Of a stretch of 64,000 nt of DNA, positions 1 to 55,835 are shown piece after piece; position 1 is the first letter of the stretch; each line of letters opens with the position of its first letter. The DNA lies in IMG/VR virus record IMGVR_UViG_3300013132_005564, positions 20,499-84,498 of that record; one strand, 5' to 3'. The position numbers and the translations under genes were made by a program. Source of the DNA: a virus. The notes beneath the pieces are model-generated. The model was not told the DNA's origin. It was given only the letters and a program-made list of their open reading frames with translations, and searched no databases.

Positions 1-3000
1 AACGGCTGGCCGTCCAGTGACGACTTCCAGCCCGACGAAGAAGGTCCAGCCTTCGTCGCCGGCCGGGATGCGCTGACAGGCAGGGAGATTCGCGTCCCAC
101 TGAGACAGGTTCTGATGAGCCACTCACCACCGTCCCGCGAGAGGGGGGAGTTCGATGCGATCGCCTTCGGTCGTTTCGGTTTCTCGACAGAATCGGGACC
201 GATGGTGACAGACCGGGCAACCGAGGCCGACTCCGTCAGCGCCGGGATGTCGGGGGACGACCGGTGGAAACCGACGCCAAGCTACGGTGAAGGCAGGCGG
301 CCAAAGTTCATATACACCGTCGTCGACGCCGTGCTCGGGGACGACAACAGACTTGATCAGTACGGGGTCGTCCGGATCGACGCGGCCTATGTTGCCGCCG
401 GTCGTATTCCTACGAGGTACATGCTGGACACTATCTACGCGTTGCAGAGCCTGGACGCATCGATCGGTGCGCCGTACGACCACGGGTACCACTTCCTCAG
501 GTTCGTGTACCCGAGCTCCGGGCCGACAGAAGGACTCAAGAGCGACGCGGTCAGGATGATACTCGATCCCACCATCGTCTTCGGACGGTGGAACCCTGAC
601 GAGAAGCGACTCTACATCCTTGCGCGAGAACCAGACATGTCGGGGGATTGGAACGTCGCGCTGTATCCCCTCGACGATTTTCCCACGGGACCCAACAAAT
701 ACGACTGGACTCGCCGAGAACTGATAGAGCACCCAGACGTGACAAGCGGAACTCTGTCAACGTACGTTCTCGGCAGGGAAATGGGCCCTGACGGCAAGTG
801 GCGCCAGAGGGTTTTCAACACGAGCCGGATGAAAGCGGACACTGGCCCGATGGACGAGGTTTTCCCGATCGGACCGTTGAGCGTCCCGGACCGCGTCGCT
901 ACCTGGAGCGACGGGCCGACGCCCGAGACGGAGCCGTCCGACGCTCCGAGAATCAAACCAACGGACCCCGCACCGTCAACCGAACCGCGGACGCCGAGGA
1001 AGCGACCCGCCGCGCCCTCTTTCTCCGGGGCAAAGGACGTCCCGACCGAAACCGACGACACGGTCATCGAGGACATGGAGGCTCCGCGACCGGAGGCTTT
1101 CGTTGGCGACGAGCCGACCACAATGCCCGTTGATCCCAAGAAGGTCAAGGAGGCGGAGATCGTCGACAAAACAAAAACCCCGCTGCCCACGGCCCGCGAC
1201 GTGGCGATAGGCCTTGCGGCCAACGATCCCGTCGTGATCGAGGCGCGAAGGAACGACGAGGCCAAGTGGTGGCAGAAGCTCAAGCAGAAATTGCTGAGGA
1301 CAAAAATACTCAAGACCTGGAACCCCGAGACCAACGAAATCAAGGACGAGAACGACAACGCTGTGCTCAACCCAGTCACGGGCAGGAAGCAGTACCGATT
1401 GCCGTTCAGGGCGGCGTGGAAGCCGTGGGGCAACCCGATCGCCGCAGACGGAACCGAGAGCGACGAGCTCGGGTTCAAGGGCTCGATGGACCTCGCCGGA
1501 GGGTGGCGGGACATTTTCAAAATCATGTCGCGCAAGCGTCTTGCGTTCGTCGACATAGAGACGACCGGAATAGTGGACGACAGGACCGGTGGTCCAGTGC
1601 AGATCGCCGTCCACGTCGTGGAGCCGGGCGGGGACTGGAACAACCCGAAAATAATCAACGTCTACATTCGACCAGAAGAGGAACTCTCGGACTGGGCCAG
1701 GGACAACCTGAAAGTCAAGATCGGCGACAAGACAATCCCGATACAGGAGGCGCTGGCTTCGCACCCCGAGATCTTCGTGTCAAAGGAGGAGGCGCGCAAA
1801 ATTTTGGCGGAAGCGGTCGGCAACGACTCCGTGATCATATCGCACAACTGGCGCTCGTTCGACTCGCGGGTATGGAACGACGTGATGGGCGACCATCCCA
1901 CCGAGGGATGGGTGGACACCCTTGCGCTGGCCAATTGGTTGTTCGCCGTGGACAAGGAGAGGTTCGGCGTCATGGCCAAACAGCTGAAGGAAGCCCTCGG
2001 TGCTGCCGGCGACTCCAAGGTTGCCCGCAACGCGGCCTACGACCGCCTGTCGACACCTTTCGTCGCATGGCTCAAGAAGGCCGTGAAGATTGACAAGCCG
2101 GGTGGCAAGTCGTGGGGCAAGAGGTTCCAGGAGAGGATACACGCGATCGACAGGCTTTACCGTTTCGCCACCGGACCGCTGTGGTACAAGGAGAGGTTGT
2201 CCGTAAACGGCAACTGGTGGCCGGATCCGTATGCCTCGACCAAGAACGAGGCGCTCGCCCTGTACTTCGGTCACCCCATCCTCAAGGCTCACGACGCAAA
2301 CGCCGACATAGAGGCGACGCGCAGGAACCTGCTCGCCATGATAGAGCTCGGCGACAAGTGGGGCGCGGCGAGGTTCATGTTCGACAGGGACTCAAATGAC
2401 CTGCTCGTCAGCAAGGAGGACGAAACGTGGGCGCTGAACTACAGTGCCTGGAAGCAAGCCCATCAGGGGATCGGTGCCCCCACCGAGAACTTGTTCGCTC
2501 CGAGGGACACCAGTGCGCCGGGCGACGCGCCGTCACCATCGGACGGAACCCGTCGTCCGGACGCCCCGGGTGGATCACCGGACGAACCGACAACCCCGAG
2601 CGAACCCTCAGCCCCCGGCGGGGGAGACAGGCCACCGGGCGGTCCTAGACCGCCCAGACCACCGGGGGCGACTCCGCGCGGCCCGACACCGGACCCGGAC
2701 AGGGTGCCGAGCGGCTCCTATGGGAACGGCGTCCGGATCTACAAGGGGATCGGCGGAAAGTACGTGGAGATGAACTCGATTGCCCCGGCCACCGACGCGG
2801 AAACGGCAGCTTTTTTTGTGGCGAACTTGTTCGTTGCCCGCCAGGACGGCATAGGTTTCCAGTTCACATACGGAGTCGCTCCAGACGGAACCCCGAGGAC
2901 GTACAGGCTCCTGTCGATCGAGGTTGTCCCCAAGCCCGGTTTGACACCGGAGGAGGCGAGGAGGGCAGGCATCGGTGGGTTCGTGATCCTCGGGTTGGAC

Positions 3001-6000
3001 GCCGCCGACGGAAGACAAAAGACGTTCGACTTTGATTTGGTCAACCTCAGGGACAGGGCCTTCACGTCGGAACCCGGATTCACGAAAGTGCCTTTGCCGA
3101 CCGACGTGTACGGGGGGAAGGATGAGATGAGCCTCACCAAGGACCAGTACGTCGATCTCTCCAGAAGACGCAGGTTCAACAACGACAACCGGACGACGGA
3201 CGGACCCATGGCCGGTATGTCTGGTCTGACGAACAGGGACGGGTACTCCGATTCTCCGTCCTACTGGAGAGTGACCGAGCAGGACGTGGAGGCGGACCGC
3301 CTGAGCGACGCAGGTCTCGCGGAAAGACTCAGGTCCGACAAGGTGAGACTGGAGAATCTCATAAACCTCGGCCCGTCGGGCAACTCAGACGCGTCCAGCG
3401 TCCTCGACTCGATAGCGGCGACGCAGAGGGTGATGAGGATCAGATCCAACCAGGGCCCCGACCACAACGGAATATCCGTGACCAAGGCCGACTCCGACTA
3501 CTCGCTCTCGGGCGACTTCGTCGGGGCCCCGGGCACCCTCGGTTCCACATATTCACTGCCGGCGAACCCGACCGAGCTGAGGCGCGAGCTCAGAAGGAAC
3601 GCCGATCTATCCGTGAACCTAAACATGGCGCTGCTGTCGGACGGGCCGGGCAGGGCGCTGGACAGGCTCGCACGCATCTCGAGAATTCCGAGGGGGGAGA
3701 TCGTCGCCCGACTGACCTCGCACGACTACGGAACGTACGCAGATGCGGCTTCCGAAAGGATATTCATGTCCGTGGCGGACGGTGTTCGTCGGGGCGAGAA
3801 CACCCCGTCATCTCTCGGGTTGCTGGTCGATCCAGCACTCGATCTCCAGCCCGCCTCCGCAGCCGTCGTCGCCTCGTCGCGGGCGATGGGCCTCAACGTT
3901 CACGGAACTCCAGAGATGATGGTCGGAGATAGGGACAGATACGGAGCGGTGGAGCTGATTGATCTGCTGGCCGATTTCAACGAGACCGTCGGGGACCTCT
4001 TCTCGCTGGCGTCCACAAGCAACGAGACGGACCCACGGTTCAGGGTCAGGTCCAGGGTGATGAGAGGGAAACTTGCAGAGATCGCAAGGGAGGTCGGCAA
4101 CCGTCACCATCGCTCGCTGGGCGCAGGCACCGATTCGTTGCAGGCGGGCGCGCAGGCCGGCATGGGCAACCCGGACCCCGACCTGCGCCGCTTGATGAGC
4201 GAGTTCGTGCGAATGGCCCCCTCCATGAATTTCGAGTCCGTCACGGACGCAGGGTTCGACGAGGATTGGAAGCGTCTCTCCGACCAGGTAATCGACGACT
4301 TCGTACGGCGGCCGGGCCGGGGAACGGAGCAGGCGTTCTCCTCGTTCGGCGATGCGCTGAAAGGCAGGGCGAGCGTTGTCGGTCGGACGATCGACCGAAT
4401 AATCGACCCGAGCAAAGCCCCCATCCCGGCGAATTCCCCATTGGGACGCGAGGTGGTCAAGTCCACCGCGAAGATCCTCGCACTCATCTACGACCTGAGG
4501 TTCGGATCGACGGACATGCTCGGACTTCTGGCTTCCACGCCAGGGGCGGGCCCGGGCTCCGGAACCAGCGGGCTGGACGTTACCTACAAGATGATTGATT
4601 CCGGCGCCGCCGCGCTGTTCGCCAGGGGCGGCCGAAAGGCGCTGGTCGCGTATCTGGTGGAGGCCGTGAGCCTTGGTCTGGTGCCTGCCGGCAGGGCCAT
4701 GGGGATTCTTGACAGGCTGTCCCCCTCCCCCGGGACCGCGGCGATATCCTCGGGAGCCGAGGCAGCCATGGGTCGGTCGGGCGGTTCCTCGCCGTTCGGC
4801 GACGCCGACGGAATACCGATACTGAGCGGATCAAAGTGGCTCGACGCGAGGCTGCACGCCATATACGGCTCGGTGGAATACGAGAAAGTTGCCAGAGGCA
4901 TAGGCGAGCGTTTCGCCGACCTTGCCTCGCGAGACTGGGACAACCCGACCGACGACGATCTCGTTGACATCCATCATTACTCGCAGATGGTTCAACACGA
5001 CGATTTGATAGAGCGCTTCACCATGACGGGTGGCGGCGCCGCCCCGAGAGGGGGAACGACCGACACTTTTTACGCTGGGCGGAGCGGCTTGGACGTCACC
5101 ATCGACAAGGTGTCCGCTCTTGCCGAGGTTTCCCCGGAGAGGGTCGACGAGTTGATGTGGCGCGGCGCGCAGGTTTCACAAATAAGGAGGCTCGCCGCAA
5201 TGGATCCCTTCTCGAGGGCGGAGGAGCTGAACTCCGTGCGCAGGAAGCGCGCTCTCGCCAGGCAGCTTGCCGGCACAAGCGGCGGACCGATCGGCACAGA
5301 CGGGTTCTCGTCCCTCAATTTCTCCGGGAGGACGCAGCAAGAGGACTCCTTCCTTGATGAGGCACTGGCGCAGGCGCTCGACCAGGAAACGCTCTTCCTC
5401 GGCTTGATAAACGACATGAAGAGAGACGGCGGATCCGACGCTGGGATGGCCAAGCGGAATTTCGTTCCGCAGAGGTACGACATCAAACCGGTCAAGGACG
5501 GATTCGTTATCATCGACATGAGCAACAGGAACGCGGTATCGAGCCGCGTGTTCAAGAGCAGGAGGCGCGCCCTCGACGGGGCCCGCAGAATGGACGTCGG
5601 CGACAGCCGCTTTGACCCGTTCGGTCCCGAGACGCCCGACGGCGCGCCTGCGACAATCGCCGAATCGTTCGCAAATGATCCGAGGACGGCCAGGATCTTC
5701 CAGTCTCAATCGGGGGCCTCGCGGGCCCGCCTCGAAACGGACAGCAAGATCTCGTCCGACGAGAGCGGGTTACCGAGCAGACTGACCCTGTCTGGGCCGC
5801 GCGGACCGGCGGAGATCACCAAGGAGTTCGCAGCCGGGACTTTGAGGATGTTCGACAACGGGGCTTCCTCAATCCCCAATCCTTCACCGGAGGAGGCCTC
5901 GACGACGAGATTGATCTCCGGCTACGTCTCCACAAACGCAATGATCGAGACCGTGCTCGGGAGGCTCGACACGATCGCGCGAATGAGTCGCTCGAGGATT

Positions 6001-6258: not shown

Positions 6259-6311
6259 CTAATGTCAACTTGCACTTCCTTCATTGGTAGTGCTCTACAA
6301 TGGGAGGCGCC

Positions 6312-8105
6312 ATGAAAATTTTGCGGAATCAGGACACCAAGTCGGCGACGTCAGAATACGTCCTATCGCTCGCAGAGCTCCAGGAACTGGAGGAAAACGA
6401 GCCGGATGACGACCTCCTGCTCCCGGTCCCGAAGGGGGACCGGTTCTACGCCAAGCAAGCCATTGACGACGTCCTCTCCGGTTACATGATGAGTTCCAGC
6501 GCCGTCTACGACGGCATAATCATCCACGACGCAAAGACGATCGGCCCAGAACTGGCAAAGGACTTGCGGGATGCGCTGGTCTTCGTCTGGGAGCAAAAGG
6601 CCCTCGGGGCCACCATCGGCGGCGGCAAGCCGTCGGGTGGCGGCTCCGCCGAAGACATGATCGACAGGGACGGGGACGGATACATTTACGACGGAACCCC
6701 GCAGGAGCAAAGAGTTCCGTACAAGCGCCGCGACGGCAAACCGGTCGGCGGGGGTGCTCCTGAGGGGATGGAGGCGCGACGCAGGCAGTTCGTGCGTGGC
6801 GAGGCCGCCAGGCAGGGCGTGCAACTAAACCGGGGCCCGAAACGATCGGAGCAGGAGAGAAGATTCAGGACCGAGGCGAGAGCGCGATTCGACAGGATAG
6901 CGCTCGAGGGTGAGGGATTCATTCCCGCCGACAGAATAGAAGCGGGAGATAAGCGCAATTTCGAGAACCGCATGGGTGACGTCAACGCGGGAAGAGTCGA
7001 CGATCAGGGCAGAAGCGGTTTCGGTTACGGTGGGGAGCCAGCTCCGTTCAATCCGGGACAGCGAGGCAAAAGACCCGACACCTCCTTCCAGGACAACGAG
7101 GACGCCCGCAACCAAGGCAAGCGCCCCGCCGGCAGGCCCGTGGACAGGCTGCCCGGTGCAGGCGGACCAAGCGGGAGTCTCAACCCCGGACAACGAGGGG
7201 CCAGACCCGACACGTCCAATCAACGAGCGGAAGACGCTCGCAATCAAGGCAAGCGCCCCGCCGGGAGACCGGTCGACAGACTGCCAGGAGCGGGCGGTCC
7301 CGGCTACGACGAATCTTTCGGTAGAAACGAAAGTCGTCGTCAGCAGGGAATGCGTCCCGCGGACACCTCGAATCAGAGAGCGGAAACGGCTCGTCAAGCT
7401 GGGTCTCGTCCGCAAAGACCGGTCGACAGGCTTGGTGCGGCAGGTGGCCCCGGTTACGACGAATCTTCCAATAGAGCTGAGTCCGCCAGGATGCAGGGAA
7501 TGCGTCCTGCCGATACCTCTTCGCAGAGGGCGGAAAGCGCAAGACAAGGCGCCGCTCGTCCGCAAAGACCGGTGGATCGTCTGACTGGTCCCGGTTACGA
7601 CGAATCTTCCAATAGAGCCGAGTCGGCGAGAATGGGTAGGTCTCGTCCGGCCGACACTTCTTCTCAGCGGGCGGAAAGCACTAGGCAAAATCGCTCACGC
7701 CCACAGGGTCCTGCCGACAGAATTTCTGGCCCCGGTTACGACGAATCTTCCAATAGAGCCGAAGACTCGAGAATGCAGGGTCGTCGCCCGACGGACACCT
7801 CCAACCAAAGGGCCGAGTCATCCAGACAAGGAGCGTCGCGCCCGAATCGCCCAGTAGACAGACTTGGCGGATCCGGAAATCGCAGGGCCGACGGATCTAG
7901 CAACGCGGCCGAACGAAACAGAATGAATAGATCTCGTCCGGCGGACCGTTCTTCGCAACGAAACGAAGACGCTAGACAGGGACGCGCCGCTTCGGGAACG
8001 AGGAACGCCCAGCAGAGACCGCCCGACAGGATCGACACCTCGGGCAACAGATCTCGTAGATTCGGCAGAGGGCAAAGCGACTACCTATACGGTGGCGACG
8101 CGTAA
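6312..8105 (+). CDS. Putative internal head protein with KALGATIGG/DRDGDG motif and R/G/Q/S-rich repeats
   Basis: ORF 6300-8105; GGAGG before ATG 6312 favours that start. Shared motif at 6597-6710; C-terminal half made of imperfect repeats. Confidence 0.75.
   Translation: MKILRNQDTKSATSEYVLSLAELQELEENEPDDDLLLPVPKGDRFYAKQAIDDVLSGYMMSSSAVYDGIIIHDAKTIGPELAKDLRDALVFVWEQKALGATIGGGKPSGGGSAEDMIDRDGDGYIYDGTPQEQRVPYKRRDGKPVGGGAPEGMEARRRQFVRGEAARQGVQLNRGPKRSEQERRFRTEARARFDRIALEGEGFIPADRIEAGDKRNFENRMGDVNAGRVDDQGRSGFGYGGEPAPFNPGQRGKRPDTSFQDNEDARNQGKRPAGRPVDRLPGAGGPSGSLNPGQRGARPDTSNQRAEDARNQGKRPAGRPVDRLPGAGGPGYDESFGRNESRRQQGMRPADTSNQRAETARQAGSRPQRPVDRLGAAGGPGYDESSNRAESARMQGMRPADTSSQRAESARQGAARPQRPVDRLTGPGYDESSNRAESARMGRSRPADTSSQRAESTRQNRSRPQGPADRISGPGYDESSNRAEDSRMQGRRPTDTSNQRAESSRQGASRPNRPVDRLGGSGNRRADGSSNAAERNRMNRSRPADRSSQRNEDARQGRAASGTRNAQQRPPDRIDTSGNRSRRFGRGQSDYLYGGDA
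7040..7960 (+). repeat. Imperfect in-frame tandem repeats (GPGYDESSNRAESAR..G.RPADTS.QRAE..RQ...RP.RPVDRL)
   Basis: Repeated DNA such as ggttacgacgaatcttccaatagagc occurs three times, and the peptide unit recurs several times. Confidence 0.85.
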
Positions 8106-8117
8106 ACGAGCGAGTCA

Positions 8118-8321
8118 ATGAACGGCAGACCAAGCGGCGGGTACACCCGCGGGAACCGTGTTATGGGTTATGATAAACCTACACAAAATAACGCAGTCAA
8201 ATTGAAATATCACTGCATTGCGACGGGCGAGAAACGCCAGTTTCCGTGCGGCAGTTGCGTCAACCACAAGGGTTGCCTGGCGACGACGATGCAATACAAG
8301 GAGCGAAAACATGGAACCTGA
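8118..8321 (+). CDS. Small Cys-rich (putative Zn-binding) protein
   Basis: 67 aa ORF filling the gap; HCIATGEKRQFPCGSCVNHKGC resembles MCKATGETVMEPCAECKGDC in the next gene. Confidence 0.6.
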   Translation: MNGRPSGGYTRGNRVMGYDKPTQNNAVKLKYHCIATGEKRQFPCGSCVNHKGCLATTMQYKERKHGT

Positions 8322-10323: not shown

Positions 10324-10334
10324 GGGGGATCGAG

Positions 10335-15814: not shown

Positions 15815-15882
15815 GAAATATACGTCTATAATTGTTTGATGATTGTCACGTTCCGCCCCCCGGAACAGAGGGTTTAGGACAG

Positions 15883-38431: not shown

Positions 38432-38847
38432 TGTCGGACTCGGTCAATCAACTCACCCCGCTTGAGGTATCCGAGTACGTGGACGAGTACTCGGCGGTTG
38501 CCGAGATAGCAAAGTACCCGCCGTTCAGTCTGCCTCGGTCACCGAGGGAGTCCGAATTCCTGCTCGACTTATCCCGCGAGTTCGACGCGTTCGTCAACGG
38601 CGACAAACCGTACGACTCCTACCAGTCCGTCCTTGACGAGTACGAGCCGGAGTTGGTGAGGGCGAGGGCGTGGAAGTCTTTGGGTTACGATCCGGTGCGC
38701 GCAACACGGGAGGCGATCAAGAAGGAGCTGGAGGAAACCGGGCTGGACCCGAAACACATGCCATACCGGACAGACAACGTGTTCGACTCCCAAGCAAAGG
38801 TTTTCGTAATTTTCGCAGAAAAAATCGTTCCCTGGGAGTTCCTGTGA
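38428..38847 (+). CDS. Small acidic protein coupled to the ART-like giant gene (immunity-like position)
   Basis: ATGA overlap; 139 aa ORF. Confidence 0.7.
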   Translation: MMSDSVNQLTPLEVSEYVDEYSAVAEIAKYPPFSLPRSPRESEFLLDLSREFDAFVNGDKPYDSYQSVLDEYEPELVRARAWKSLGYDPVRATREAIKKELEETGLDPKHMPYRTDNVFDSQAKVFVIFAEKIVPWEFL

Positions 38848-39767: not shown

Positions 39768-39842
39768 CATCAGCCCATCCGGGTTTGAAGTATTCTTGTC
39801 GGTACTATAAGCGCGTTTCGGCGACGACCAGAACGGAAGACG

Positions 39843-48800: not shown

Positions 48801-51800
48801 CGCGACCTCCGCAACACCCTGCCATCGGATTGGGAGTTCATGACTTTCCGGGACAGGCAACTGTGGCTCGGATCGGAGGAGGCCTTCAACACGCTGGGCA
48901 AGCTCGGCGTCAACGACGAGCTCACCGAACTGCAACGACAAATCGAGGATTTCGGGTCCATGGACGGACCTTACCCGGCGATCGCAAGGGCGATCTCCGG
49001 CAACCGCGGGACGAGGGGATTGTTCGGTCGCGAGCTGATACTGCCGAACGGAAGAAGCCCGATCTACGACTCCACCGGCCTTGCCGGCTCCGAGCTGAAG
49101 GAGAACGGCAGGAACCAGATCAGCCTCCTGCTCGAGGCGGTGCCGGGGATGGACCAACTATCGGACAGGGGCCTAGCGAAGTTCCTGAACACCGACTTCG
49201 ACACCGTCTCCAAACTGAAGAGGCCGGGCATGGCCGTTGCTCCCGAGGGGGCGGACAGGATGGCCGCGGCTTTCGGCATCGTCGCCTCGGACATTTGGCC
49301 GGCGGTAAAGCCGTCCGCGGACACCGACCCGGGCAACTTCTACTGGCTCGCCTCGACGTGGGACAGATCGGGCGAGGCGATCAGGTCCATCTCGGAAGGC
49401 ATAGACCCGGCGGAGTTGATGTCGGAAATGGACAACTCCGACTTCATCTACTCAAGGGTGCAGAACCTCGTGAACGACGGAACCGTCGAGCGTTTCTACG
49501 ACGCTCTCGGTCTGGAGGAGATAACGGCAGAGGACGCATCCGCCTACGCAACGGGGATCGCCCCGAGGAGCAGGAAGGCGGTCGTCGAGCTGCTCGCGTC
49601 ATCCGGCTACAGGGAGCAGGACATCGTCGACGCAACGGGATTCAACCCGAACACGGTCAGGAACTCCCTGCACGAGCTCAGGAAACAGGGTCTCATTCCG
49701 GACGTCGTCGGCGGACCCGGCTGGGTGGCTAAAAACTCGCGCTACGTGATGGACGACTTCAACGCCGGTCAATCCAAGCGGTCCCTCATGAAAAAATACG
49801 GGATAGGGGCGAGGACTCTCGACTCGATCATTCAGGACGGCATGAGTCGCGGCAGAATTCCCGACGCCTACACCGACGGGGCCGACGCAGGCATGGCGAA
49901 CAGACGGTTGCCGGACAAGGCCGAGCTGTCGGACGGTCCGAGCGAAAACTGGAGAACCGACAGATCACAGAGGGCCGACGGAACGCCGATCGCAGCGGAC
50001 ACGCAGAAACCCCCGGCGGTCGTCGCCAATCCGTTCTTTGATCCCGCCTCCCCGGCGGCGCTGTCAATCTCGGGGGAACCGAAAGACCCCGACAAGACAG
50101 AGATTTGGAAAAAGGCGATTTCCGACTACATATCGTTCGCGATCGAGGGCGGTTTTTTCACAAGCTCCCCCGACCCGGATCCCGCCAAGCAAGTCCTCAT
50201 GGCCATGTTCAACGAGCGACCGGACGTCCAGGAGCCCGTCGACAGGGTGGACATGCCGTTCGTGACCGAGTATCCGCCGCGCGATGCAAATAAGTCGCAG
50301 GGAACCGGCAGGGATTACGGATTGTTCGCGATCGCCACCAGGCAGGAAAATCCGGACATGTACCCCGGGCCCATGCACGCCATGCCCTTTCTGGCGACCG
50401 TTGATTTTGACGCCCAGGGAATCTACAGGGGGATCATGCCGATGTTGAGGGACATGATCCTCGCAACCTGGGACAAGTCCAACAGGCAGGAAAATCCGGA
50501 ACTGTACGCCGGGCACGTCCGCACGGAAGAGCTGATCGAGGCGGGATTGCTGGACGAGCCCGAGATGCCGCAGGGATTCGACGACGAGATGCGAGCGAAG
50601 CTGTGGCAACTCAGGCAGGTCATGCGCAATCCGATGATGGTCGACGCTCCCCCGCTGTTTGAGCCGGGCGATCTCGAGATGATGAACAAGGTTCTTCCAT
50701 TGATGGCGGCGGCCGACGAGCAGAACGAGTTGCTGCGCAGGTTCGGATCAACCACGACAGAAGCCCTGAGAAACCCCTCGCCGGCGATCGGCCCGACCGT
50801 TGCGGGCAACACCCTCGGCCAACCTGAAGACTTCCAACCGGGGATTTATGGAAACATGATGAGCGGAGTTCCGATGTTCTCCAACCTCCTGCTCAGCGCC
50901 GCGCTGGAGGGCAACGCGGAAGTGAAGAGCCTGCTGGATTCAATGACTCCCAGGCAGATAATGCTCACCAACTGGGCCTACTCGCTGTATTCCGCCGTCG
51001 GTCCGATCATCGAATCGTTTGGGAGAATGATGCCCGTCAGTACCATCAGAACCCCAAACATCAACATTCCGGACGAGGCGGGAACGAGGACAAATCTCGG
51101 CGACGTCATCTACCGACCGGTCCCCGAAGTTGACGACCAGGTTTTTGCATTCGTATTCGACTCGATCTTCAAGGCCCTACAGGGAGTCGCCGAGAGACCA
51201 GACGACCTGATCGTTGAGTCTCTGCCCTACGGGAAGCACACAAACAAATCAAAGAACAATGACTTCGGGGTGCTCGCCCAGCTCGAGGTCGTCGAGATGC
51301 CCGACGAGAACATGCTCAAGCTCAAGGAGTCGGTGAAGATCCTCGCAAGACTCACCGCCAACGCGCTGGCGACCAATCTGTACCGCCGTGCCGGCAGGGC
51401 GAGCGGTCTGGAAACCGGCTACGGACGCACCCCGTTCACAGAAGGCTCCGGGGACGGAACGCAATGGTTCCGTTACGCCCGCCCGAGGCTTGACTCCTAC
51501 GGGCACTGGTCCATGTACGGTCCGAACATCGTCTACGCAGGCGAGGGCAGGAATCCGTATACCCCGGGATGGAGCGACGAGGAAACGCTGATGCGGGAGA
51601 GCATGGGCCAGCCGATCTCCGAGAGCGCCGAGGACGCCGAGACGCTCAAGGCCATGCAGACGCTGCTTGACGAGATGCCAGGGGAGTACTGGTGGCAAGC
51701 CTCCGACGCCGCCGGAACCCTGACCGACGAACAAATAATCGCCATGCACCCCGAGGAGTTCGCGCATTACGTGGCCAACGTCTCCGCGCTGGAGGACGGA

Positions 51801-54800
51801 CCGGACATGGACAAGGTTTCACAGTTGCTGAGAAGGGCCTTCGGCAATTTGGCGACGTTCGACTTCCCTAGGGCCGAACTTGACCAGTTTGACGAGTGGG
51901 TCGGCGGAATCATCAGGAACATGCCCTCCGGAAGCGTTACGCAGGAGGGCGTGCTCAAGCAGCTAAAGAACATCTTCCCGTGGTTGGACATCAACAGGAT
52001 GGACGACGTCTACCCCGTGACCGGTCGCACCCTCGAGGAGGCGATGAACACCCTGGGAGAGTCGCTCAACGATATGACCGAGGATGAGAAACAGTTCATC
52101 GCCGCGTCTCGTCCGTTCCTGCTGGAGGCCGGAAAGATCGTCAGTTCGCCGGTTGGCGTCGCCCTGATGCGGGAGAGGAGAAATCAGTTCATCTTGCCGA
52201 TCATCATGGGTCTGATGGATGCCCATCGCACCAACATGACCATCGGGTACAGGTCGCTCGCTTCGTTCAAAGAAGGGTTGAGGAGGGCGAGGGGGGCGTA
52301 CGAGCCAAGCGACTTCGAGCGTCAATTGAGGTCCATGTTCTTGCTGGTCAAGGAGATGGAGGAGAAGGGACAGATCGGGCCTTCCATGAGCTTCAAGCTG
52401 GGCAATGAGATTCTGCGGGCTCAGCAGGCGGTCATCTTCGACAACGTGGACGGATTCAGGGTGCTGCGGGAAGTCTTCGACCGAGCAGAAATCGGCGAGG
52501 ACTGGGGCGACATACCGATGACGGACTTGAGCTACATGCTCAGGATCATCGAGGACAACTTTTTGGCCGGGCAGGGCGATCCGGGCGAAGGAGCCGATCT
52601 CGGAGGCGCGAGTCAACAAGAAATCATCGACAGGTTCGTGGGCGCAGAGCAAACGGCAATGGAGGCGCTGGGAGACAATTACGGGAAGATGCTGGCGAGC
52701 GGAATCTACGGTTCGGTGAAGACCCTCGGGGAGGCGGCGCGGGAGATTGCGCCGTTCATCAGGTCCAGCGAAAGGACGAGGAGGCGCAGGTCCCTCCTGC
52801 CGCGGTACAAGAGGGAGGTCATCGACCCACTGGCGGACCGTCTGCTGACGGACGCAGAAAAAATGGACGAGGTTCTCACCTTCAACGACTGGCTGGACGC
52901 AAACGGCTATCCCGACCTAAACACCGACAAGGGCACGGACGACGGGGGGGCGAACGCCGGAATGTCGGCTACGACAAGAATGGTCATCTCGCGTTTCACG
53001 GACGACGCCGCTCAGTCGGTGAGGGAGGCCTACCAGGAGGCGTCCAACGGCTCCGACAAGGTGACCGTCGGTCACCTCCTGCTCGGGATCGCGGCCGTTA
53101 ACGACATGGACGAGATCACCAGCTCGTCCGTCCAGAAGTATGCGCTCAGGGGAATGGGGTTGAATCTGAAAAGATTGAGGGAGGCTCTCGCCTCCGTCAC
53201 GACCCCTTCCGAGACTGGGTCGGCCAGACCGTCGCAGTTCACCTCCGCGGCGAGGAGGACGCTGATAGGTGCCGTCGTGGCGGCATCGGAACGCGGCGAG
53301 GAGGTCGTGGACGCTGGCGACATAATCATCGCTGCGTTTGACGCAAGGTTGCGCGGGAACTCGCCCGACGACGACGGCGTGACCGACGCCCTGATGGAGG
53401 CCGGCATAATCCCGTCCCTCATATCCGCGAACATCGCCGCGGCAAGGACCGGATCCTTCCCCGTCGGCTCCAGCGACCCGAGTGCGGCGATGGGTGCCGG
53501 AAGGAGGGCGAACAACAGCGCGGACAGGAAGGACGACCTGATGCGCAACAAGCTTCAGGCCCAGGCTTCTTGGTTCAATGCGGGAAGGCCGACGCCGATC
53601 GCCACGGGGACCGCAACCGACGGCCAGCTCGTCGACGAAGTCGCCAGACTGATGGACATCTTCAACGCCTCCGTGACGGACGGGCAGATAGACGACTGGG
53701 ACCTGCGAGCGGGCGAGTCGCCGTTCTCGAGGGGTGCGGTGATGCCCACCAACTCGACCCTCGTCCACGGATGGAACGGTCAGGAGCCGAGCGACCTGGT
53801 CGGGGCGATTCGGTTCGCGATCGACAGGGCTTCGGCGCTCGTCACCGACGACAGGGAGACCGCCCGCCTATCCCGACTGCTCTCCGACATGAGGCTCTAC
53901 TTCGACAACGACGAGCACCTCTCGCAGGACGGCAAAGACGCGAGCGCCGGCATGGCGAAGGATTTCAGGATGATGATCGAGCCGATCAGGGAGCTTTTCG
54001 GCAGGAACGAATCGGCAAACCAGCGCAGGTATTACGAGGGCATCTACGGGGACGTCGACTTGTCGGAAGGAGAAATTCGCAAGGCGGCGCGATCCGAGTC
54101 GCTGGCGCATCCATTCACGGTCGACAAGAACCTGAGCGGCACCGAGGACGACATCAACTGGAGCACGAGCCAGTGGTCGTACAACAAGGACGAGACCTTC
54201 GTGGAGGCGGCCGACTCCGTGATGGTCAGGATGCGCGACGGCGACATCTCCACGGCCGAGGTCGCCGCGATATCGCGCAAGAGCGGTCCATTCAGGGATT
54301 CCCTGGCCCTCGTCGGGGGCCTGCGCGACGGCAACGAGGACCTCATGACGACGGCCACGAGAGAGACATCCGAGGAGGTCGGCGTCTTCCTTGACAACGC
54401 ATCGCAGGTGCAGAACCTCGGCGTCATAGAGTCACCGGACTGGGACCCGCGCTTCGTCAACGGGGCGAGGGTCGGCGCAGGGTTGTTCGTGATCCCATGG
54501 GACACGCAACTGGTGGCGGCGTCCGACGCCGCCGGCGCCAGATGGGTTCCGCTGGCGGAGATCGCCGCCGGTCAGCACAGGCTCGCCTTCGGGCACGCCG
54601 AGTGGATAAGGCGTGCCGTGGCGGCCATGGAGATAAATCCGTCGTCCGATCCGTACGGGGACATTCGGTTGTCCATCGCTAGGCGCCTGGGAATCCTCGC
54701 GAAGGCGTCTCGCTTGCGCAACCAAAAACTAATAGCCCAGATCAACTCGATGAGGCGCGCCACCGGAAGGAAGCAGTTCATCGGCACGGACCGCATGCCG

Positions 54801-55835
54801 CACCCGATGATGCCGTGGGGCAACCGCGTTTCCAAGTCCACGTGGGAGTTCGGCCCAGGGGTCAACGCAGGCATGTCTTCCGGGAACTTGCCGGACGTGG
54901 ACGACTCGTTGCCACGCAGGCTCGGACTTCTCTCCGTAACGAGCGACATGTCGGCCTCGCAACTCGAGCAGGGGTACGACACGGCCGGCTTCTACGGCGT
55001 GGGGCACTCCCGCGGGGGCGACGACATGTTCGCCGCGTGGAGGAACAAGGACAGGGTGGAGAAACTGTGGCGCCCGTACGTCGAGGCGAGCCTTGAGACG
55101 GCGCGGGCGGGGGACATCCCCAACGACCAGAAGCGACCGGTGGTCTTCGTCCTGGGCGGGGGTTCGGGCGTCGGTAAGTCGACGGCGAGGAACTCGGGCC
55201 TGTTCGGAATACCGAACTACGACAGTGCCGTGGTCGCCGACCCCGACGACGCCAAGATAATGATGCCCGAGGCGAGGCTGTGGTACGCGCGAAGGTTGCC
55301 CGAGGCCTCGAGCTTGGCCCACACGGAGTCAAGGCAGGTCACCGCCGTGCTGGCGAGGGCTGCGACCAAGGAGGGTCTGGACATGGTCTACGACACCAGC
55401 GGCCAGTTCAACGACGGTTTCCAGGACATAAAGGACTGGAGGAAAGCCGGGTACGAGGTCGTCGCCCATTACTTCTTCGCCCCGGAGTCGATCCTGCAGG
55501 ACAGGGTCGCGGAAAGAGAGCGCAGGACGGGCAGGGGCGTTCCCCCCTGGATAGTCAAGCAGATCCAGTGGAACCTGACACAGATGCTCCCGGATTTCAT
55601 CGCGCGCGGGGCGTTCGACGAGCTGTACATATGGGACACGGAAAAGGACGTCACCAAACCGCTGCTGGTCGGGCAGATGTCCGCTTCCGAGCAGGGGCAA
55701 CCAGCGATCCTCCAGTTGAAGCACCCGTATCTTTTGAGGTATCTGTTCAGGGACAGGGTCGCACCGGACGGGGGTAAGATTGAGCCGAGAAAGACGACGG
55801 CAATAACCATCCCGAGGGCACAAGGGCAACTATGA
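39843..55835 (+). CDS. 5330-aa polyprotein-like protein: leader, about 14 linker-delimited modules including HTHs, Clp N-domain, Nudix hydrolase and C-terminal Zeta-toxin kinase
   Basis: Leader at 40158-40307. ClpN RFTDDAAQSVREAYQEA...GHLLLGI; Nudix LALVGG...ED...TATRETSEEVG...DPR...LAFGH; Zeta VFVLGGGSGVGKST...DPDDAK...HTES...DTSG. Linkers at 40353, 42093, 42651, 43158, 43536, 43572, 44139, 46071, 47883, 49887, 52956, 53484, 53946, 54867. Confidence 0.9.
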   Translation: MDESIQPGDCCPLSDDDIETKDVSFGPRMVRPDSFDAYVDKESARARARMLGCIGIRQYGSTNGGTVWMPCSNESDYRRVTGTNFSGRRQRRRMLKAELGEGISKKALGATIGMVGGRVNTNPATAIDADLDGLVLEGLPFINLGRGVPDPTPGGTNELLPNADNRNFAMAAMSNRRGPRISPPGEIELSRDGDDSASPATRMPSQRATRSRKRETTFADVDTDRFDELIARIADDVASSEVAADVSSDEAVGKLLDDVRGIASSVAEVVDGHIDSRPRRSTSTRDAAEETSTRITAKAIGTVMEISNNPTQSLSENENLTRLVTSSIIERGAAEVASLTGKPGIWAFLVQAMIGGAYATQRAWELLARIFGVENNTGWVPEPTGRFAEALAPSLANERKKAARSRALDSSGRAIDALRQAGFAISDASEVPAIADDMASALDSPELIELPGDKKPGPAPTLDALDEIIQRINATTGKTRPRGARKPSYSKYRGTSEEILRNRMDIAGVPSGIDDVYRTNSVDVPTDNERLAAKLISTPGRNGQGALNAELLYRALSDRSALRSYVSPVDSPFVAQLATLIEEGRLPRLADALLEMSPQTVENFLAVPPRPIISAARAARKTLRPSGSWMARISNDPFETAFHMLRAKDYHLSSIFSGADSGKLTDAVDELVGNNVSETAAIFGSLVALNKERLAEAYDGSQSVAQGGNRLLRTARNLIASATENDSVWAATRDSISDVTAAMLGGDSADAAMSRQVVRFGSNYPRHRRKTGDWSPIANKIRDGVKAYRARYGPIASNSADLSRFVNFSYPELLSEASELIDLMKEKVEFGSLKFEDYARNGWINRDTAELDVDEFDPTNLETIFDKGSQMGLFKSIGVVLVAASRVAPSRDEREAVLDLMDEVNEWTFTALPLYSEPRSVTDRRRGIFPSSASADAGMTVNRPVPDDVRQTLMSLTRPYDSGQTQGLPTIRMQRKLVEKANELMRNDLPDDLAQRMAASPNGPTIDISELFLGTAEQFRWDQATIASFYEEVAEMMNRMVQEVPDAKRRQKLADMFTGALEDIADNMDNENTEFFDRVGDIPSRTVGRLSRRASRSQVAEDTADAGMTVNRGVPEDVRETLMSRQSPLGSGEKLGLPERRISRKLTEVANDIFAADRIANDSPLPSPGIAEVFFNTAGQLRWDRPTTESFFEDVRRMMNQMVSEIPDSTRRNRLADVFSEALSDIENRINAGMKPIGTPDADAGIRGRDLPDRETTVLFDGVMEVVSSLDNNPNLEERDSPESLREKLRVVGITGTLGNDEDFDNMIASVLPTMGRTEESYSPTSGVSKAAMDDLDYMFYEVMNELNMSTEDPAEEFVRRLRRQFGVSNADQFHDLIRSVSTQSGIGSRGEYVGQVYDGSYLTTSAIKSRIRATVPGFYEALDSMESEDVSAGMAGPTIDRLRNNVLEARRIRELGKIAEIDDAKDYAMRTVEARRRRLIGMSEPGGFIEFVARGVTDQRSPLSLTRIAQAKGGYEKVIRDADPDVVNAIWGALGEFVRGARGDFMTSTPSNNTRLLYRAAVARAIFEDAEFKPISEGNFTDDELLAKLGVGAYEDLLPNNSMLTITESDIDAVPSVRSKAAQALEILAMDRTQLIQMLTNDATRPETQQAVGAEIERIIKLARDRIDGQRGKLEYVPTSDHMKQISLAELISPLDGETLAAFVEDLTDAQLTSLQNVNLPEQAASQLVNESKRISWSSAARKMVALSDLHGASVAEASSLASRLDALLATGEMTENVSNLVRAIQNRDAEEIARLIGATNVAEPDEERSILRALYEFSRNAEGESISAMLPPAIDEATDLAIRRSKAIVALKSQPDGGRGLARRTIDTHPRQTKGYDLVRTVPDATPEDEKLFDLGRAIQDYNGSTESAVRLVYSLTDLQLQNLRNNYIIPSILQRMDHAAFEKRKQSGLIAETRARIDNLGRRLGMMSMAPGSGNLVEETVGMIDDALATAFGERATEISALTPEERETYTDIIDYFVSGGRESFEDPSEYGRRLRGFRDSVTPSTDPGSGEEDRSGGGTATDDYWDIFDDGNAGMSDGKKLNEEAARRIFPGVEEYVKTGTRTETTSLPITDDRDTMVEARRIIAALYDVAVGRIPDDIAEKMRADGSLATSQAIYPAVVQSTLRALASADGMPFDFRSLPNDYDPRNDKDIDRRNFFLGAMTELVALHVALGLPEIVSSDPTRTPNNISIDLHRDDFLMVLPPDLDLADDSKLRFSYDPQGRAGTFETWDDAATGEFDGDPESHPTVIQIADSIAQLRRLFPGYNDWLDQANRYSRTLAPGHYEKNKDFGESLIDQLKRDPSALDLDKVMRAITATFPDREGEESRMFADAASLPPDPDDVSDFPDLSSYPDPDVMTGSDMPRDRISKQRKIAISPAKASVAARQAWWSSFTSGTLMDEYEIAAITKTTDGDNFHPEAILSGLKKYARDNGIDDSTFSSLRAAATKAAAQRYNAVALQKTIATLNDIAMRPGGIPAELRNIASEMKRMDNITKEISRHYQDRIRARIQTLYSTYATLYKGLMEAQNVLKQRLADGEITPQGYVDDWHKAYRAVLPAILSASRQIGELSSKANATRRVLAALEVQKSELNQRVQEIQEATRLTSDDMQTRMQMLRDITNGLSHAAKDPSALNDDTNAGMSIGRSRFGIVGSSEGDAPRTRELMTRTEKRFVSEANMIGNVLSTMNMESMRAIPNMRAALSALRNGSPSASVPPARLGTESEMGQLKNMASVMFRADLDAESMSRSVMGNRFLRFSDIARMTLPDFTRRITEDIITSGIAATIMNNGVGESDVDSALIMLAQSTENMRNMAVYNHPSVTAKAFGVTEDDVSDAIATESLITRSSRLLRSAQSYALSLSGAYSEDTVRRMTMNRFPELESFDDEYLRSLAPSDQKRAEASRQLNSAISRNKLVKLSPRSVPLAYGVSEDVASLISAASATRTPPRDLRNTLPSDWEFMTFRDRQLWLGSEEAFNTLGKLGVNDELTELQRQIEDFGSMDGPYPAIARAISGNRGTRGLFGRELILPNGRSPIYDSTGLAGSELKENGRNQISLLLEAVPGMDQLSDRGLAKFLNTDFDTVSKLKRPGMAVAPEGADRMAAAFGIVASDIWPAVKPSADTDPGNFYWLASTWDRSGEAIRSISEGIDPAELMSEMDNSDFIYSRVQNLVNDGTVERFYDALGLEEITAEDASAYATGIAPRSRKAVVELLASSGYREQDIVDATGFNPNTVRNSLHELRKQGLIPDVVGGPGWVAKNSRYVMDDFNAGQSKRSLMKKYGIGARTLDSIIQDGMSRGRIPDAYTDGADAGMANRRLPDKAELSDGPSENWRTDRSQRADGTPIAADTQKPPAVVANPFFDPASPAALSISGEPKDPDKTEIWKKAISDYISFAIEGGFFTSSPDPDPAKQVLMAMFNERPDVQEPVDRVDMPFVTEYPPRDANKSQGTGRDYGLFAIATRQENPDMYPGPMHAMPFLATVDFDAQGIYRGIMPMLRDMILATWDKSNRQENPELYAGHVRTEELIEAGLLDEPEMPQGFDDEMRAKLWQLRQVMRNPMMVDAPPLFEPGDLEMMNKVLPLMAAADEQNELLRRFGSTTTEALRNPSPAIGPTVAGNTLGQPEDFQPGIYGNMMSGVPMFSNLLLSAALEGNAEVKSLLDSMTPRQIMLTNWAYSLYSAVGPIIESFGRMMPVSTIRTPNINIPDEAGTRTNLGDVIYRPVPEVDDQVFAFVFDSIFKALQGVAERPDDLIVESLPYGKHTNKSKNNDFGVLAQLEVVEMPDENMLKLKESVKILARLTANALATNLYRRAGRASGLETGYGRTPFTEGSGDGTQWFRYARPRLDSYGHWSMYGPNIVYAGEGRNPYTPGWSDEETLMRESMGQPISESAEDAETLKAMQTLLDEMPGEYWWQASDAAGTLTDEQIIAMHPEEFAHYVANVSALEDGPDMDKVSQLLRRAFGNLATFDFPRAELDQFDEWVGGIIRNMPSGSVTQEGVLKQLKNIFPWLDINRMDDVYPVTGRTLEEAMNTLGESLNDMTEDEKQFIAASRPFLLEAGKIVSSPVGVALMRERRNQFILPIIMGLMDAHRTNMTIGYRSLASFKEGLRRARGAYEPSDFERQLRSMFLLVKEMEEKGQIGPSMSFKLGNEILRAQQAVIFDNVDGFRVLREVFDRAEIGEDWGDIPMTDLSYMLRIIEDNFLAGQGDPGEGADLGGASQQEIIDRFVGAEQTAMEALGDNYGKMLASGIYGSVKTLGEAAREIAPFIRSSERTRRRRSLLPRYKREVIDPLADRLLTDAEKMDEVLTFNDWLDANGYPDLNTDKGTDDGGANAGMSATTRMVISRFTDDAAQSVREAYQEASNGSDKVTVGHLLLGIAAVNDMDEITSSSVQKYALRGMGLNLKRLREALASVTTPSETGSARPSQFTSAARRTLIGAVVAASERGEEVVDAGDIIIAAFDARLRGNSPDDDGVTDALMEAGIIPSLISANIAAARTGSFPVGSSDPSAAMGAGRRANNSADRKDDLMRNKLQAQASWFNAGRPTPIATGTATDGQLVDEVARLMDIFNASVTDGQIDDWDLRAGESPFSRGAVMPTNSTLVHGWNGQEPSDLVGAIRFAIDRASALVTDDRETARLSRLLSDMRLYFDNDEHLSQDGKDASAGMAKDFRMMIEPIRELFGRNESANQRRYYEGIYGDVDLSEGEIRKAARSESLAHPFTVDKNLSGTEDDINWSTSQWSYNKDETFVEAADSVMVRMRDGDISTAEVAAISRKSGPFRDSLALVGGLRDGNEDLMTTATRETSEEVGVFLDNASQVQNLGVIESPDWDPRFVNGARVGAGLFVIPWDTQLVAASDAAGARWVPLAEIAAGQHRLAFGHAEWIRRAVAAMEINPSSDPYGDIRLSIARRLGILAKASRLRNQKLIAQINSMRRATGRKQFIGTDRMPHPMMPWGNRVSKSTWEFGPGVNAGMSSGNLPDVDDSLPRRLGLLSVTSDMSASQLEQGYDTAGFYGVGHSRGGDDMFAAWRNKDRVEKLWRPYVEASLETARAGDIPNDQKRPVVFVLGGGSGVGKSTARNSGLFGIPNYDSAVVADPDDAKIMMPEARLWYARRLPEASSLAHTESRQVTAVLARAATKEGLDMVYDTSGQFNDGFQDIKDWRKAGYEVVAHYFFAPESILQDRVAERERRTGRGVPPWIVKQIQWNLTQMLPDFIARGAFDELYIWDTEKDVTKPLLVGQMSASEQGQPAILQLKHPYLLRYLFRDRVAPDGGKIEPRKTTAITIPRAQGQL
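42651..43544 (+). repeat. Tandem duplication of one linker-delimited module
   Basis: AGMTVNRPVPDDVRQTLMS...TAEQFRWDQATIASFYEEV...RRQKLADMF versus AGMTVNRGVPEDVRETLMS...TAGQLRWDRPTTESFFEDV...RRNRLADVF. Confidence 0.9.

Follow-up and report, generated by a model that had tools for sequence, protein, structure and literature searches.

Phage proteins that join unrelated domains in one giant chain have been described as polyvalent proteins, for which packaging, injection and processing by embedded peptidases were predicted (Iyer et al. 2017, PMC5512222). That work named no recurring cleavage motif, placed assemblin-like peptidases only at the C-termini of polyvalent proteins, and proposed MPTase-PolyVal as their processing enzyme (PMC5512222). 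Processing by prohead proteases has been reported for the T4 internal proteins IPI-III and Alt (gp21, I/LxE) and for head and ejection proteins of the phiKZ and SPN3US type (PMC9026906, PMC7411985, PMC10052503, PMC12991175). Here, we analyzed a 64,000-nucleotide stretch of viral DNA (hereafter the window), in which a short peptide with the core A-G-M recurs within giant open reading frames (ORFs) located among the head genes. The window makes up the final 64 kb of an 84.5-kb IMG/VR contig (IMGVR_UViG_3300013132_005564, positions 20,499 to 84,498), whose completeness was estimated at about 57% by CheckV. An earlier note on this DNA had proposed that AGM peptides delimit the modules of virion-loaded polyproteins, and knew of no description of such a system. 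Polyvalent proteins and their predicted processing were already in print (PMC5512222), but our literature search turned up no account of recurrent linker codes in phage polyproteins headed by a protease.

The genes lie on the + strand in the order TerL, portal-MuF, S78 protease, giant cargo ORFs and HK97 capsid. The ORF series consists of portal-MuF, A (4370 amino acids, aa), a 601-aa protein, a 701-aa protein, D (1763 aa), E (3781 aa), F (917 aa), a conserved 699-aa protein, H (1827 aa), a 365-aa protein, J (5330 aa) and an HK97-fold capsid protein. Every giant gene is placed between the prohead protease, which is fused to the first giant protein (A), and the capsid gene. The head-gene cluster occupies about 67 kb, the bulk of the contig, and is enlarged by about 50 kb of giant proteins. 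The ORF of A starts at genome position 13644, 6.9 kb upstream of the window; what the earlier note took for an ORF at position 1 does bear AGM, but is only the last 2085 aa of the 4370-aa ORF headed by the prohead protease. Protein A consists of the S78 protease (residues 35-186), DUF6321, an anchor motif and then cargo, and also carries a sigma-like helix-turn-helix (HTH). A capsid search of IMG/VR gave 285 related loci (contigs up to 160 kb, G+C 0.41-0.61). For five relatives the whole head cluster was fetched (G001-G005, the genome of the window being G000); L005, L007 and L008 denote related loci.

Like polyvalent proteins, the giant proteins combine unrelated enzymatic and DNA-binding domains in one chain and are encoded beside portal-terminase genes. 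Two or more disparate activities occur per chain: protease, DUF6321, HTH and exonuclease in A, an HTH array in D, and NUDIX and Zeta in J. Homologues of A also carry ArdC-N, MPTase-PolyVal, UvrD-type helicase and KTSC domains, as polyvalent proteins do (PMC5512222). By contrast, the S78 protease is N-terminal here, MPTase is missing in this clade, and the modules are delimited by a lineage-specific code in 10-35 copies. With the T4, phiKZ and SPN3US type, the system would share a putative N-terminal targeting part, a short consensus cut by a maturation protease, and ejection with the DNA. In those phages, the protease belongs to the gp21 family (S77-type), cuts after Glu and processes the capsid under the same rule, and the cargo consists mostly of single proteins cut once or a few times. 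Here, the protease is of the S78 type, the codes end in Met or Ser rather than Glu, a chain has up to about 10 joints, and the codes of sister lineages differ. Nor do cargo and capsid share one consensus, as the predicted capsid junction is [KRM]↓[ST][ILV]G (the arrow marks a scissile bond).

Two further systems offer partial parallels. Polyproteins of eukaryotic viruses (picornavirus 3C, poxvirus AG↓X) likewise consist of a long chain with a repeated short code and a virus protease. The poxvirus parallel, drawn in the earlier note, holds for the repeated short code but is an analogy only, as the proteases and the viruses are unrelated; moreover, the products here would be accessory cargo and not a replication or structural core. 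In polymorphic toxins, demarcation motifs (VENN in CdiA, DPxGL in Rhs) and MuF-toxin fusions have been described (PMC3482391). These toxins also have a short conserved peptide at the border of an exchangeable module, in some cases a processing site (PMC3482391). However, they have one border per protein, ahead of the C-terminal toxin, and the motif is conserved across wide taxa, whereas here each protein has many borders and the code is lineage-specific.

A recurrent peptide in the giant ORFs

The long + strand ORFs of the window contain 28 AGM tripeptides, 23 of which are followed by S, G, A or T (counts per ORF and all sites are given in Table 1). Variants in good context were also present, five of them AAM and one AGI. 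Across the whole head cluster (22,301 aa), 32 AGM were found against 5.3 expected; because 14 was the most that any of 1000 shuffles produced (mean 5.4), chance or composition was ruled out as the source of this count. Except for a few Cys-containing tripeptides seen one to four times, AGM was the most over-represented tripeptide. The extended motif reads D-[GD]-[AP]-[DSNE]-A-G-M-[ASG], with D at position -4, G or D at -3, A or P at -2, D, S, N or E at -1, and A, S or G at +1. The recurrent motif of the earlier note is therefore real, and its enrichment holds against a composition-matched expectation.

As that note had stated, the motif is missing from the capsid and small genes: no AGM was found in the capsid gene (56167-57513) or in ORFs 6300-8105, 8218-10323, 27174-29927, 38670-39767 and 57659-59896. 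Similarly, comparison of the head clusters gave no code matches in portal, capsid or small ORFs. The note's list of motif-bearing ORFs stood for the most part, but the ORF at 27174 has no AGM and only a doubtful AAM. ORFs 30859-32958 and 32948-38431 each have one AGM, followed by I and R, respectively, and these may not be functional. The former (at 32128) is probably not a linker site, because I follows it and because a relative conserves it within a domain.

At AGM, every GCN and GGN codon occurs (GCG is under-used), third positions vary about as they do genome-wide, and Ser at -1 draws on AGY as well as TCN codons. At 22 AGM sites that are orthologous between G000 and G001, 26 of 44 Ala/Gly codons differ synonymously, and copies of the linker DNA are about 80% alike over 21 nucleotides (nt). 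This codon variation and DNA divergence indicate that the constraint acts on the peptide and not on the nucleotides, which the earlier note had concluded from the variable third positions; they also rule out a nucleotide-level repeat, or recent copying of linkers, as the general cause.

Location of the motif at module boundaries

In orthologue alignments of G000 and G001, identity was 0.88-1.0 at A-G-M, 0.28-0.41 in the ten residues ahead of it and about 0.35-0.46 just after it, and gap frequency peaked at -11 to -8. The upstream flank had a hydrophobic fraction of 0.18, compared with 0.27 at random positions (z = -4.6), and a G/P/S/D/N/T fraction of 0.56 compared with 0.39. Being poor in hydrophobic residues, gap-rich and variable, and standing at the module boundaries described below, the flanks place the motif in linkers.

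Pfam matches to NUDIX, Zeta toxin and the HTH array were each confined to one inter-motif segment, and a DnaQ-like exonuclease (phrog_192, E 1e-14) was found inside one such segment of A (residues 2793-2948, window ~1226-1690). Other domain assignments of the earlier note fared less well: KTSC (E 7e-4) and Clp_N (E 0.03) fell below the curated cut-offs, and the segments labelled ART-like, OGFr-like and GNAT had no Pfam match even at relaxed thresholds. When Zeta modules of G000 and G003 were compared, the block of homology opened 2-4 residues past the Met in both genomes (AGM and ISGRM, respectively). The NUDIX and Zeta modules are adjacent in G000 and separated by other modules in G003. Two tandem paralogous modules of J (49% identity) both start at ADAGM. 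In E, a 156-aa module is bracketed by identical 24-nt linkers (24994-25017 and 25462-25485), suggesting a recent insertion or duplication by recombination between linkers. Since homology blocks, Pfam domains and a duplication are all bounded by the motif, it marks a unit of evolution. In one case it also replaces a gene border: in G003-G005 the protease is encoded by an ORF of its own (about 800 aa), whereas in G000 and G001 the frame continues into cargo, and the first AGM of A sits where the separate ORF would end.

Code switching in related phages

Giant ORFs were present upstream of the capsid gene in all related loci, but AGM was common only to the closest ones. When every 3-of-5 residue pattern was ranked over the entire head cluster of each of the six genomes, the top-ranked pattern was the genome's own code in 6/6: AGM in G000 and G001, P-T-A-[SA]-M in G002, and I-[ST]-G-x-M in G003, G004 and G005. 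Further loci had P-[IV]-G-x-M, V-x-G-x-M and G-L-T-G-A-M codes. A small residue follows Met in every Met-type code. The motif search in related genomes that the earlier note had suggested thus recovered AGM in the closest relatives, whereas the others carry different codes at the same joints. In an alignment of J, six sites are AGM or AAM in G000, L005 and L007, but ASM in L008; of the 31 sites compared across all proteins, G001 has AGM at 22 and G002 has ASM at seven. In G003, a complete genome of 137.8 kb with direct terminal repeats, the code matched 18 times in 10.0k aa of cargo ORFs, compared with twice in 26.8k aa of the other 96 ORFs, making it about 24 times denser in cargo ORFs than elsewhere. 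The six-genome lineages range in G+C from 0.44 to 0.62, and their hosts therefore probably differ.

That the code changes at many orthologous joints while synonymous sites are saturated indicates a factor that reads the peptide in trans, rather than shared descent of the linkers or a DNA or mRNA signal. Different short peptides at the same joints in relatives are most likely the cutting sites of a protease.

We then searched with the first 780 residues of A, restricting the search to proteins of 2,400-7,600 aa. At least 214 giant proteins (2,400-5,500 aa) are headed by the same protease domain, with 75-80% identity over the domain, and their cargo includes ArdC-N, MPTase-PolyVal, UvrD-type helicases, KTSC, pentapeptide repeats and HTH arrays. 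About 99 of the 120 best giant homologues have a recurrent code of their own in 10-23 copies. The codes among these 120 include AGM, PTASM, P-v-G-x-M, SGAM/TGRM and R-G-M-x-S, as well as G-s-R-S, [RG]-L-S-S-G, G-L-A-S, [RG]-F-S-S-G and D-G-F-A-S-R; all have a large hydrophobic or long residue (M, L or F) amid Gly and small residues. By this comparison, AGM is one lineage-specific dialect and not the motif of the whole system. All members of the family are metagenomic. No cultured relative was found, the nearest isolates being Gordonia phage GMA6 and Brevibacterium phage Cantare, with 45% capsid identity; both have a small free protease, and no enriched motif was found in GMA6. The host of the phage probably belongs to freshwater Actinomycetota.

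Protease, anchor motif and capsid junction

The protease domain of A matches PF04586 (S78) with 45.7 bits, against a curated cut-off of 21, and phrog_80 (head maturation protease) with an E-value of 1.3e-26. The His of WGH and the Ser of EWSIGYK, the putative catalytic pair by analogy with HK97 gp4, are invariant in 5 and in about 120 homologues. Substitutions that follow the code class occur beside both residues (GH[D/N/S]WN[S/E/D]P and FFG[M/L/Q/H/E]EQEWSIGYK).

Proteins A, D, F, H and J have in common an anchor motif of 60-80 residues, NP.TARDADLD..VLEG.P.IN.GRG.PDPTPG, which in D, F, H and J is located close to the N-terminus and in A follows the protease part. In A, D and J, an NFAxAAM variant site lies within about 20 residues after the anchor. 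The anchor holds a DxDxD(G)-type loop before IN.GRG.PDPTPG and is a candidate capsid-targeting or Ca-binding element. A weak anchor was seen in ORFs 6300-8105 and 57659-59896. In addition, the proteins designated B and L share a related MIDRDGDG...DGTP stretch, 73% identical in DNA over 96 nt.

For the capsid, 76 sequences were matched among 80 related loci and the window, 46 of them distinct. In these 46, the predicted junction between the delta-like domain and the N-arm has K (36), R (6), M (2), V (1) or Y (1) before the bond and S (37) or T (9) after it, followed by [ILV]G; in the window, it is predicted at R96↓S97. The delta-like domain is about 96 residues long, compared with 103 in HK97, where PDB chains of 385 and 282 residues confirm the removal of 103 residues. 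HK97 gp4 cuts the delta domain of gp5 at K103↓S104, a site that the capsid junction here resembles. The protease of A and HK97 gp4 belong to the same Peptidase_S78 fold family, and the delta domains are similar in size; a small residue or Ser after the presumed scissile bond is shared both with HK97 gp4 and with herpesvirus assemblin, whose site is V/L-x-A↓S. In contrast to the protease of A, HK97 gp4 is a free protein of about 25 kDa, known to cut the capsid protein and itself. We know of no polyprotein substrates, Met-type sites or LSSG-type sites for HK97 gp4. The closest solved capsid is PDB 9LBM. The N-arm motif GG[RK]NG[AV]NM is near-invariant in related capsids, and the stretch before [KRM]↓[ST][ILV]G is hypervariable. 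The invariant NGANM was set aside as a capsid cleavage site because Pro often follows its Met.

Proposed processing and alternative readings

The motif, its peptide-level constraint, its linker position at module boundaries, its restriction to cargo ORFs and the switching of codes at orthologous joints were seen directly. On this basis, the linkers are probably proteolytic processing sites of capsid cargo. The giant genes would encode polyvalent polyproteins of about 35-40 modules, such as the HTH array, the DnaQ-like exonuclease, NUDIX and the Zeta-type kinase, the majority being without a family. The N-terminal anchor motif, or in A the direct fusion to the protease, would bring the chains into the procapsid. 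There, the linker D-[GD]-[AP]-[DSNE]-A-G-M-[ASG] would serve as the recognition site of a phage-encoded endopeptidase, most likely the S78 prohead protease that heads A. The individual proteins released by this cutting would leave the capsid together with the DNA. The code would be read in trans and be specific to the lineage (PTASM, I-S-G-x-M and P-V-G-x-M in relatives; GMxS, [RG]LSSG and DGFASR farther out). The NFAxAAM site may detach the anchor from the cargo, as the targeting sequence is removed in T4.

The virion-loaded polyprotein proposed in the earlier note is thus favored by gene position, peptide constraint, linker location, module boundaries and, above all, code switching. Loading of the cargo is suggested by the position of the genes, where scaffold and internal head proteins are encoded, by the fusion of A to the protease, by the anchor shared among A, D, F, H and J, and by a match of the Zeta part of J to a PHROG annotated as minor head protein. 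That the S78 protease is the enzyme that cuts the linkers is a more tentative proposal. In its favor, no other recognizable protease is shared throughout the family, the S78 domain is in cis on the first chain, and class-specific substitutions lie beside its invariant His and Ser.

As for the scissile bond, we lean towards Met↓small over G↓Met. A small residue follows Met, as Ser or Thr follows the predicted capsid junction, and HK97 gp4 and assemblin provide an analogy; moreover, Met, Lys and Arg are all long and unbranched, and a small residue comes next in both kinds of site. The small new N-terminal residue would be stabilizing under the bacterial N-end rule. The earlier note had each product beginning with Met, as a cut at G↓Met would give; the small residue after Met in itself agrees with either bond.

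Several points weigh against this reading. Packaging, cleavage, the enzyme, the scissile bond, and injection or delivery are all inferred from the sequences. Lineages with different codes share 82-97% identity in the protease domain, so that a change of specificity would have to reside in few residues, and phylogeny is a confounding factor for the class-specific substitutions. The capsid does not carry the lineage code, and every lineage has [KRM]↓[ST][ILV]G as the predicted junction, so that the S78 enzyme, if it reads the linkers, would need to recognize two types of site. Recombination at linkers also happens, as shown by one pair with 24 identical nucleotides. A HExGHxxD motif in F and in its counterparts in all six genomes presents a second candidate enzyme. 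Finally, an AlphaFold2 (AF2) model of J residues 4342-5330, built from a 4-sequence alignment, had a mean predicted local distance difference test score (pLDDT) of 37, too poor for domain limits; confidence was moderate only in a Clp_N-like unit between two sites, and the model was not used as evidence.

The alternative that survives best, although we regard it as unlikely, is that the linkers are cut by another enzyme, either the zincin-like HExGHxxD domain or a host protease acting after injection. The conservation of the S78 domain despite differing codes and the capsid junction that disobeys the lineage code would fit this alternative, as would the spread in G+C and probably in host. The HExGHxxD motif does not vary among six genomes whose identity in the region is otherwise under 20-40%, and occurs in F, in E-like proteins and at the N-terminus of a cargo ORF in the I-S-G-x-M lineage. 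However, no confident match of this domain to a peptidase was obtained: Pfam gave no family for the region, a PDB profile search gave chance helical matches alone, the ESM Atlas gave only leads below 0.9 (LPD23 and a zinc metalloprotease cluster), and an AF2 model from 6 sequences was unusable (pLDDT 43.5). A host enzyme, in turn, fails to explain the confinement of the sites to head-cluster cargo. MPTase-PolyVal (PF18818) is present in many distant homologues of A, but had no match at E <= 0.1 in G000, G001, G002, G003 and G005, where codes exist, and was ruled out as the linker reader in this clade.

We consider it improbable that the motif is left uncut, as a demarcation or spacer peptide at module borders that serves docking or flexibility, or provides a short homology in cassette exchange in the manner of the pre-toxin motifs of polymorphic toxins. 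Modules have indeed been shuffled, duplicated and exchanged at the motif, one of them is bracketed by 24 identical nucleotides, and cleavage at the motif is, as stated above, a prediction. Linker DNA that is about 80% alike over 21 nt, with saturated synonymous sites, is nevertheless too short and too diverged for homology-driven exchange; for the code to change simultaneously at many orthologous sites, something must read it in trans, and a plain flexible spacer has no need of an invariant Met.

Internal translation starts at the Met codons, from which the modules would also be made separately, were named as an alternative in the earlier note. All Met-type codes do end in ATG plus a small residue, like many true N-termini, and conserved sequence starts right after the Met. 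Nevertheless, predicted pairing of the 18 nt upstream with the anti-Shine-Dalgarno (anti-SD) sequence was no stronger at AGM (-4.18 kcal/mol) than at other internal Met codons (-4.19 kcal/mol), whereas several clear gene starts, such as those of the capsid, D and the portal, scored -8 to -11 kcal/mol. The upstream code is kept as amino acids and not as bases; it switches to PTASM or ISGRM, and in the wider family to the Met-less LSSG and GFAS. In its CCN-ACN-GCN-TCN form it is impossible as a ribosome-binding site. With no SD-like signal upstream of AGM, internal starts were ruled out and appear very improbable. Autoproteolysis by an N-O acyl shift is unlikely, given the frequent Gly or Ala after the Met.

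If the linkers are cut, one phage would deliver about 35-40 separate proteins with its DNA from a handful of genes, a polyprotein strategy so far associated with eukaryotic viruses. More tentatively still than for the enzyme, we suggest that a large uncultured clade of HK97-headed phages of about 140-160 kb uses this strategy, loading tens of effector modules per genome into the capsid on a few giant chains, with the prohead protease releasing the modules. In this clade, the code (AGM, PTASM, ISGxM, PVGxM, GMxS, LSSG, GFAS) would drift and switch between sister lineages and co-evolve with the protease residues beside the His and Ser, possibly driven by host sensors with cleavable decoy loops. 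Such protease-cleavable loops, which sense phage prohead proteases, have been described in the cyclic oligonucleotide-based antiphage signaling system (CBASS) (PMC12991175); a link between diversification of the codes and host sensors triggered by prohead proteases is speculative.

With the code as a simple rule, hundreds of giant, unannotated phage proteins from metagenomes can be divided into functional units. The majority of these units belong to no known family and are candidate sources of new activities against host defences or in host takeover. Where the code has switched at orthologous joints, a protease and dozens of substrates would have changed specificity together, as in a natural experiment. 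The lineages also offer matched sets of enzyme and sites for testing, and possibly orthogonal protease/site pairs as tools.

Features of the window

The coordinates of the giant ORFs, the anchor motifs and the motif sites are listed in Table 1.

Table 1. Giant proteins, anchor motifs and AGM-type sites, in window coordinates
Feature	Position	Strand	Remarks
Giant protein A	1-6258	+	C-terminal 2085 aa of 4370-aa ORF; 8 AGM in all, 4 in window
Giant protein D	10335-15626	+	1763 aa; 3 AGM; anchor, two unassigned modules, HTH array, C-terminal module with HEFFH
Giant protein E	15832-27177	+	3781 aa; 9 AGM; HEFNHVDDF (zincin-like), weak KTSC match, C-terminal HTH
Protein F	27174-29927	+	917 aa; anchor at residues 27-109, HExGHxxD motif; no AGM
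Conserved 699-aa protein	30859-32958	+	1 AGM
Giant protein H	32948-38431	+	1827 aa; anchor at residues 214-297; 1 AGM, R next
Giant protein J	39843-55835	+	5330 aa; anchor at residues 94-167; 10 AGM plus AAM/AGI; NUDIX and Zeta toxin C-terminal
HK97-fold major capsid protein	56167-57513	+	N-terminal coiled-coil delta-like domain; no AGM
Anchor motif in D	10341-10589	+	NP.TARDADLD..VLE....IN.GRG.PDPTPG, then NFAVxAAM
Anchor motif in F	27252-27500	+	
Anchor motif in H	33587-33838	+	
Anchor motif in J	40122-40343	+	
HEVGHVLD (HExGHxxD motif) in F	28563-28586	+	invariant in six related genomes; candidate second protease
AGM site (A)	241-249	+	SVSAGMSG
AGM site (A)	3211-3219	+	DGPMAGMSG
AGM site (A)	4156-4164	+	GAQAGMGN
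AGM site (A)	5440-5448	+	GGSDAGMAK
AAM variant (D)	10590-10598	+	just past anchor, NFAVAAM type; same layout in A, J
AGM site (D)	11529-11537	+	DGADAGMGN
AGM site (D)	12687-12695	+	TDGEAGMGR; HTH array begins after
AGM site (D)	13605-13613	+	PDGEAGMSS; HTH array stops before
AGM (E)	16900-16908	+	D next; weaker context
AGM (E)	17725-17733	+	P next; weak context, may be no site
AGM site (E)	20446-20454	+	GDGADAGMAG; best consensus match
AGM site (E)	20968-20976	+	FDASAGMAS
AGM site (E)	21559-21567	+	DDGPNAGMAL
AGM site (E)	23023-23031	+	ADGASAGMAR
AGM site (E)	23836-23844	+	DDGPSAGMGR
AAM variant (E)	24973-24981	+	EGPNAAMRG
AGM site (E)	25009-25017	+	GGDAEAGMSG; 24 nt identical to site at 25477
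AGM site (E)	25477-25485	+	GGDAEAGMGG
AGM (699-aa protein)	32128-32136	+	IEDEAGMIDD; I next; probably no linker site
AGM (H)	34121-34129	+	TASAGMRK; AGM in G001, ASM in G002
AAM variant (J)	40353-40361	+	NFAMAAMSN; just past anchor
AAM variant (J)	42093-42101	+	GGDSADAAMSR
AGM site (J)	42651-42659	+	first copy of tandem module duplication starts
AGM site (J)	43158-43166	+	second duplication copy starts, 49% identical
AGM (J)	43536-43544	+	second duplication copy ends; K next
AGI variant (J)	43572-43580	+	TPDADAGIRG
AGM site (J)	44139-44147	+	EDVSAGMAG
AGM site (J)	46071-46079	+	DDGNAGMSD
AGM site (J)	47883-47891	+	ASM at orthologous site of L008
AGM site (J)	49887-49895	+	TDGADAGMAN; ASM in L008
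AGM site (J)	52956-52964	+	ASM in L008
AAM variant (J)	53484-53492	+	SDPSAAMGA; AGM in L005 and L007, ASM in L008
AGM site (J)	53946-53954	+	ahead of NUDIX module; ASM in L008
AGM site (J)	54867-54875	+	between NUDIX and Zeta modules; ASM in L008

Other features were observed in and around these ORFs. The portal protein (genome 11367-13586, upstream of the window) has a fused MuF/SPP1-gp7-like domain at its C-terminus. In A (genome 13644-15980 region), a Cys-rich cluster, HCCPGCGHGGSCD, separates the protease from the anchor, and relatives have CGGxCGG repeats. HExxH-containing modules other than that of F were seen in E (HExxHxxDF at residue 717, ~window 17980) and in D (HExxH at residue ~1592, ~window 15108), and none of the three gave a family assignment.

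ORF 6300-8105 contains four to five tandem repeats of about 47 aa at window 7295-7858 (period 141-150 nt, about 70% identical), which are rich in R/Q/S/P (…RPADTSxQRAExARQ…RPVDRL…GPGYDES…). ORF 8218-10323 encodes the 701-aa protein, which is conserved in all relatives and had no family match; it contains an exact 98-nt direct duplication at window 8566-8780 (117-nt spacing) and acidic GAGGAAGAC repeats. The basic 365-aa protein (window 38670-39767), which has DUF3721 and DUF5872 matches, is encoded by a separate ORF in the window; in G003, the largest cargo protein has a homologue (70% identity over 143 aa) fused into its N-terminal part.

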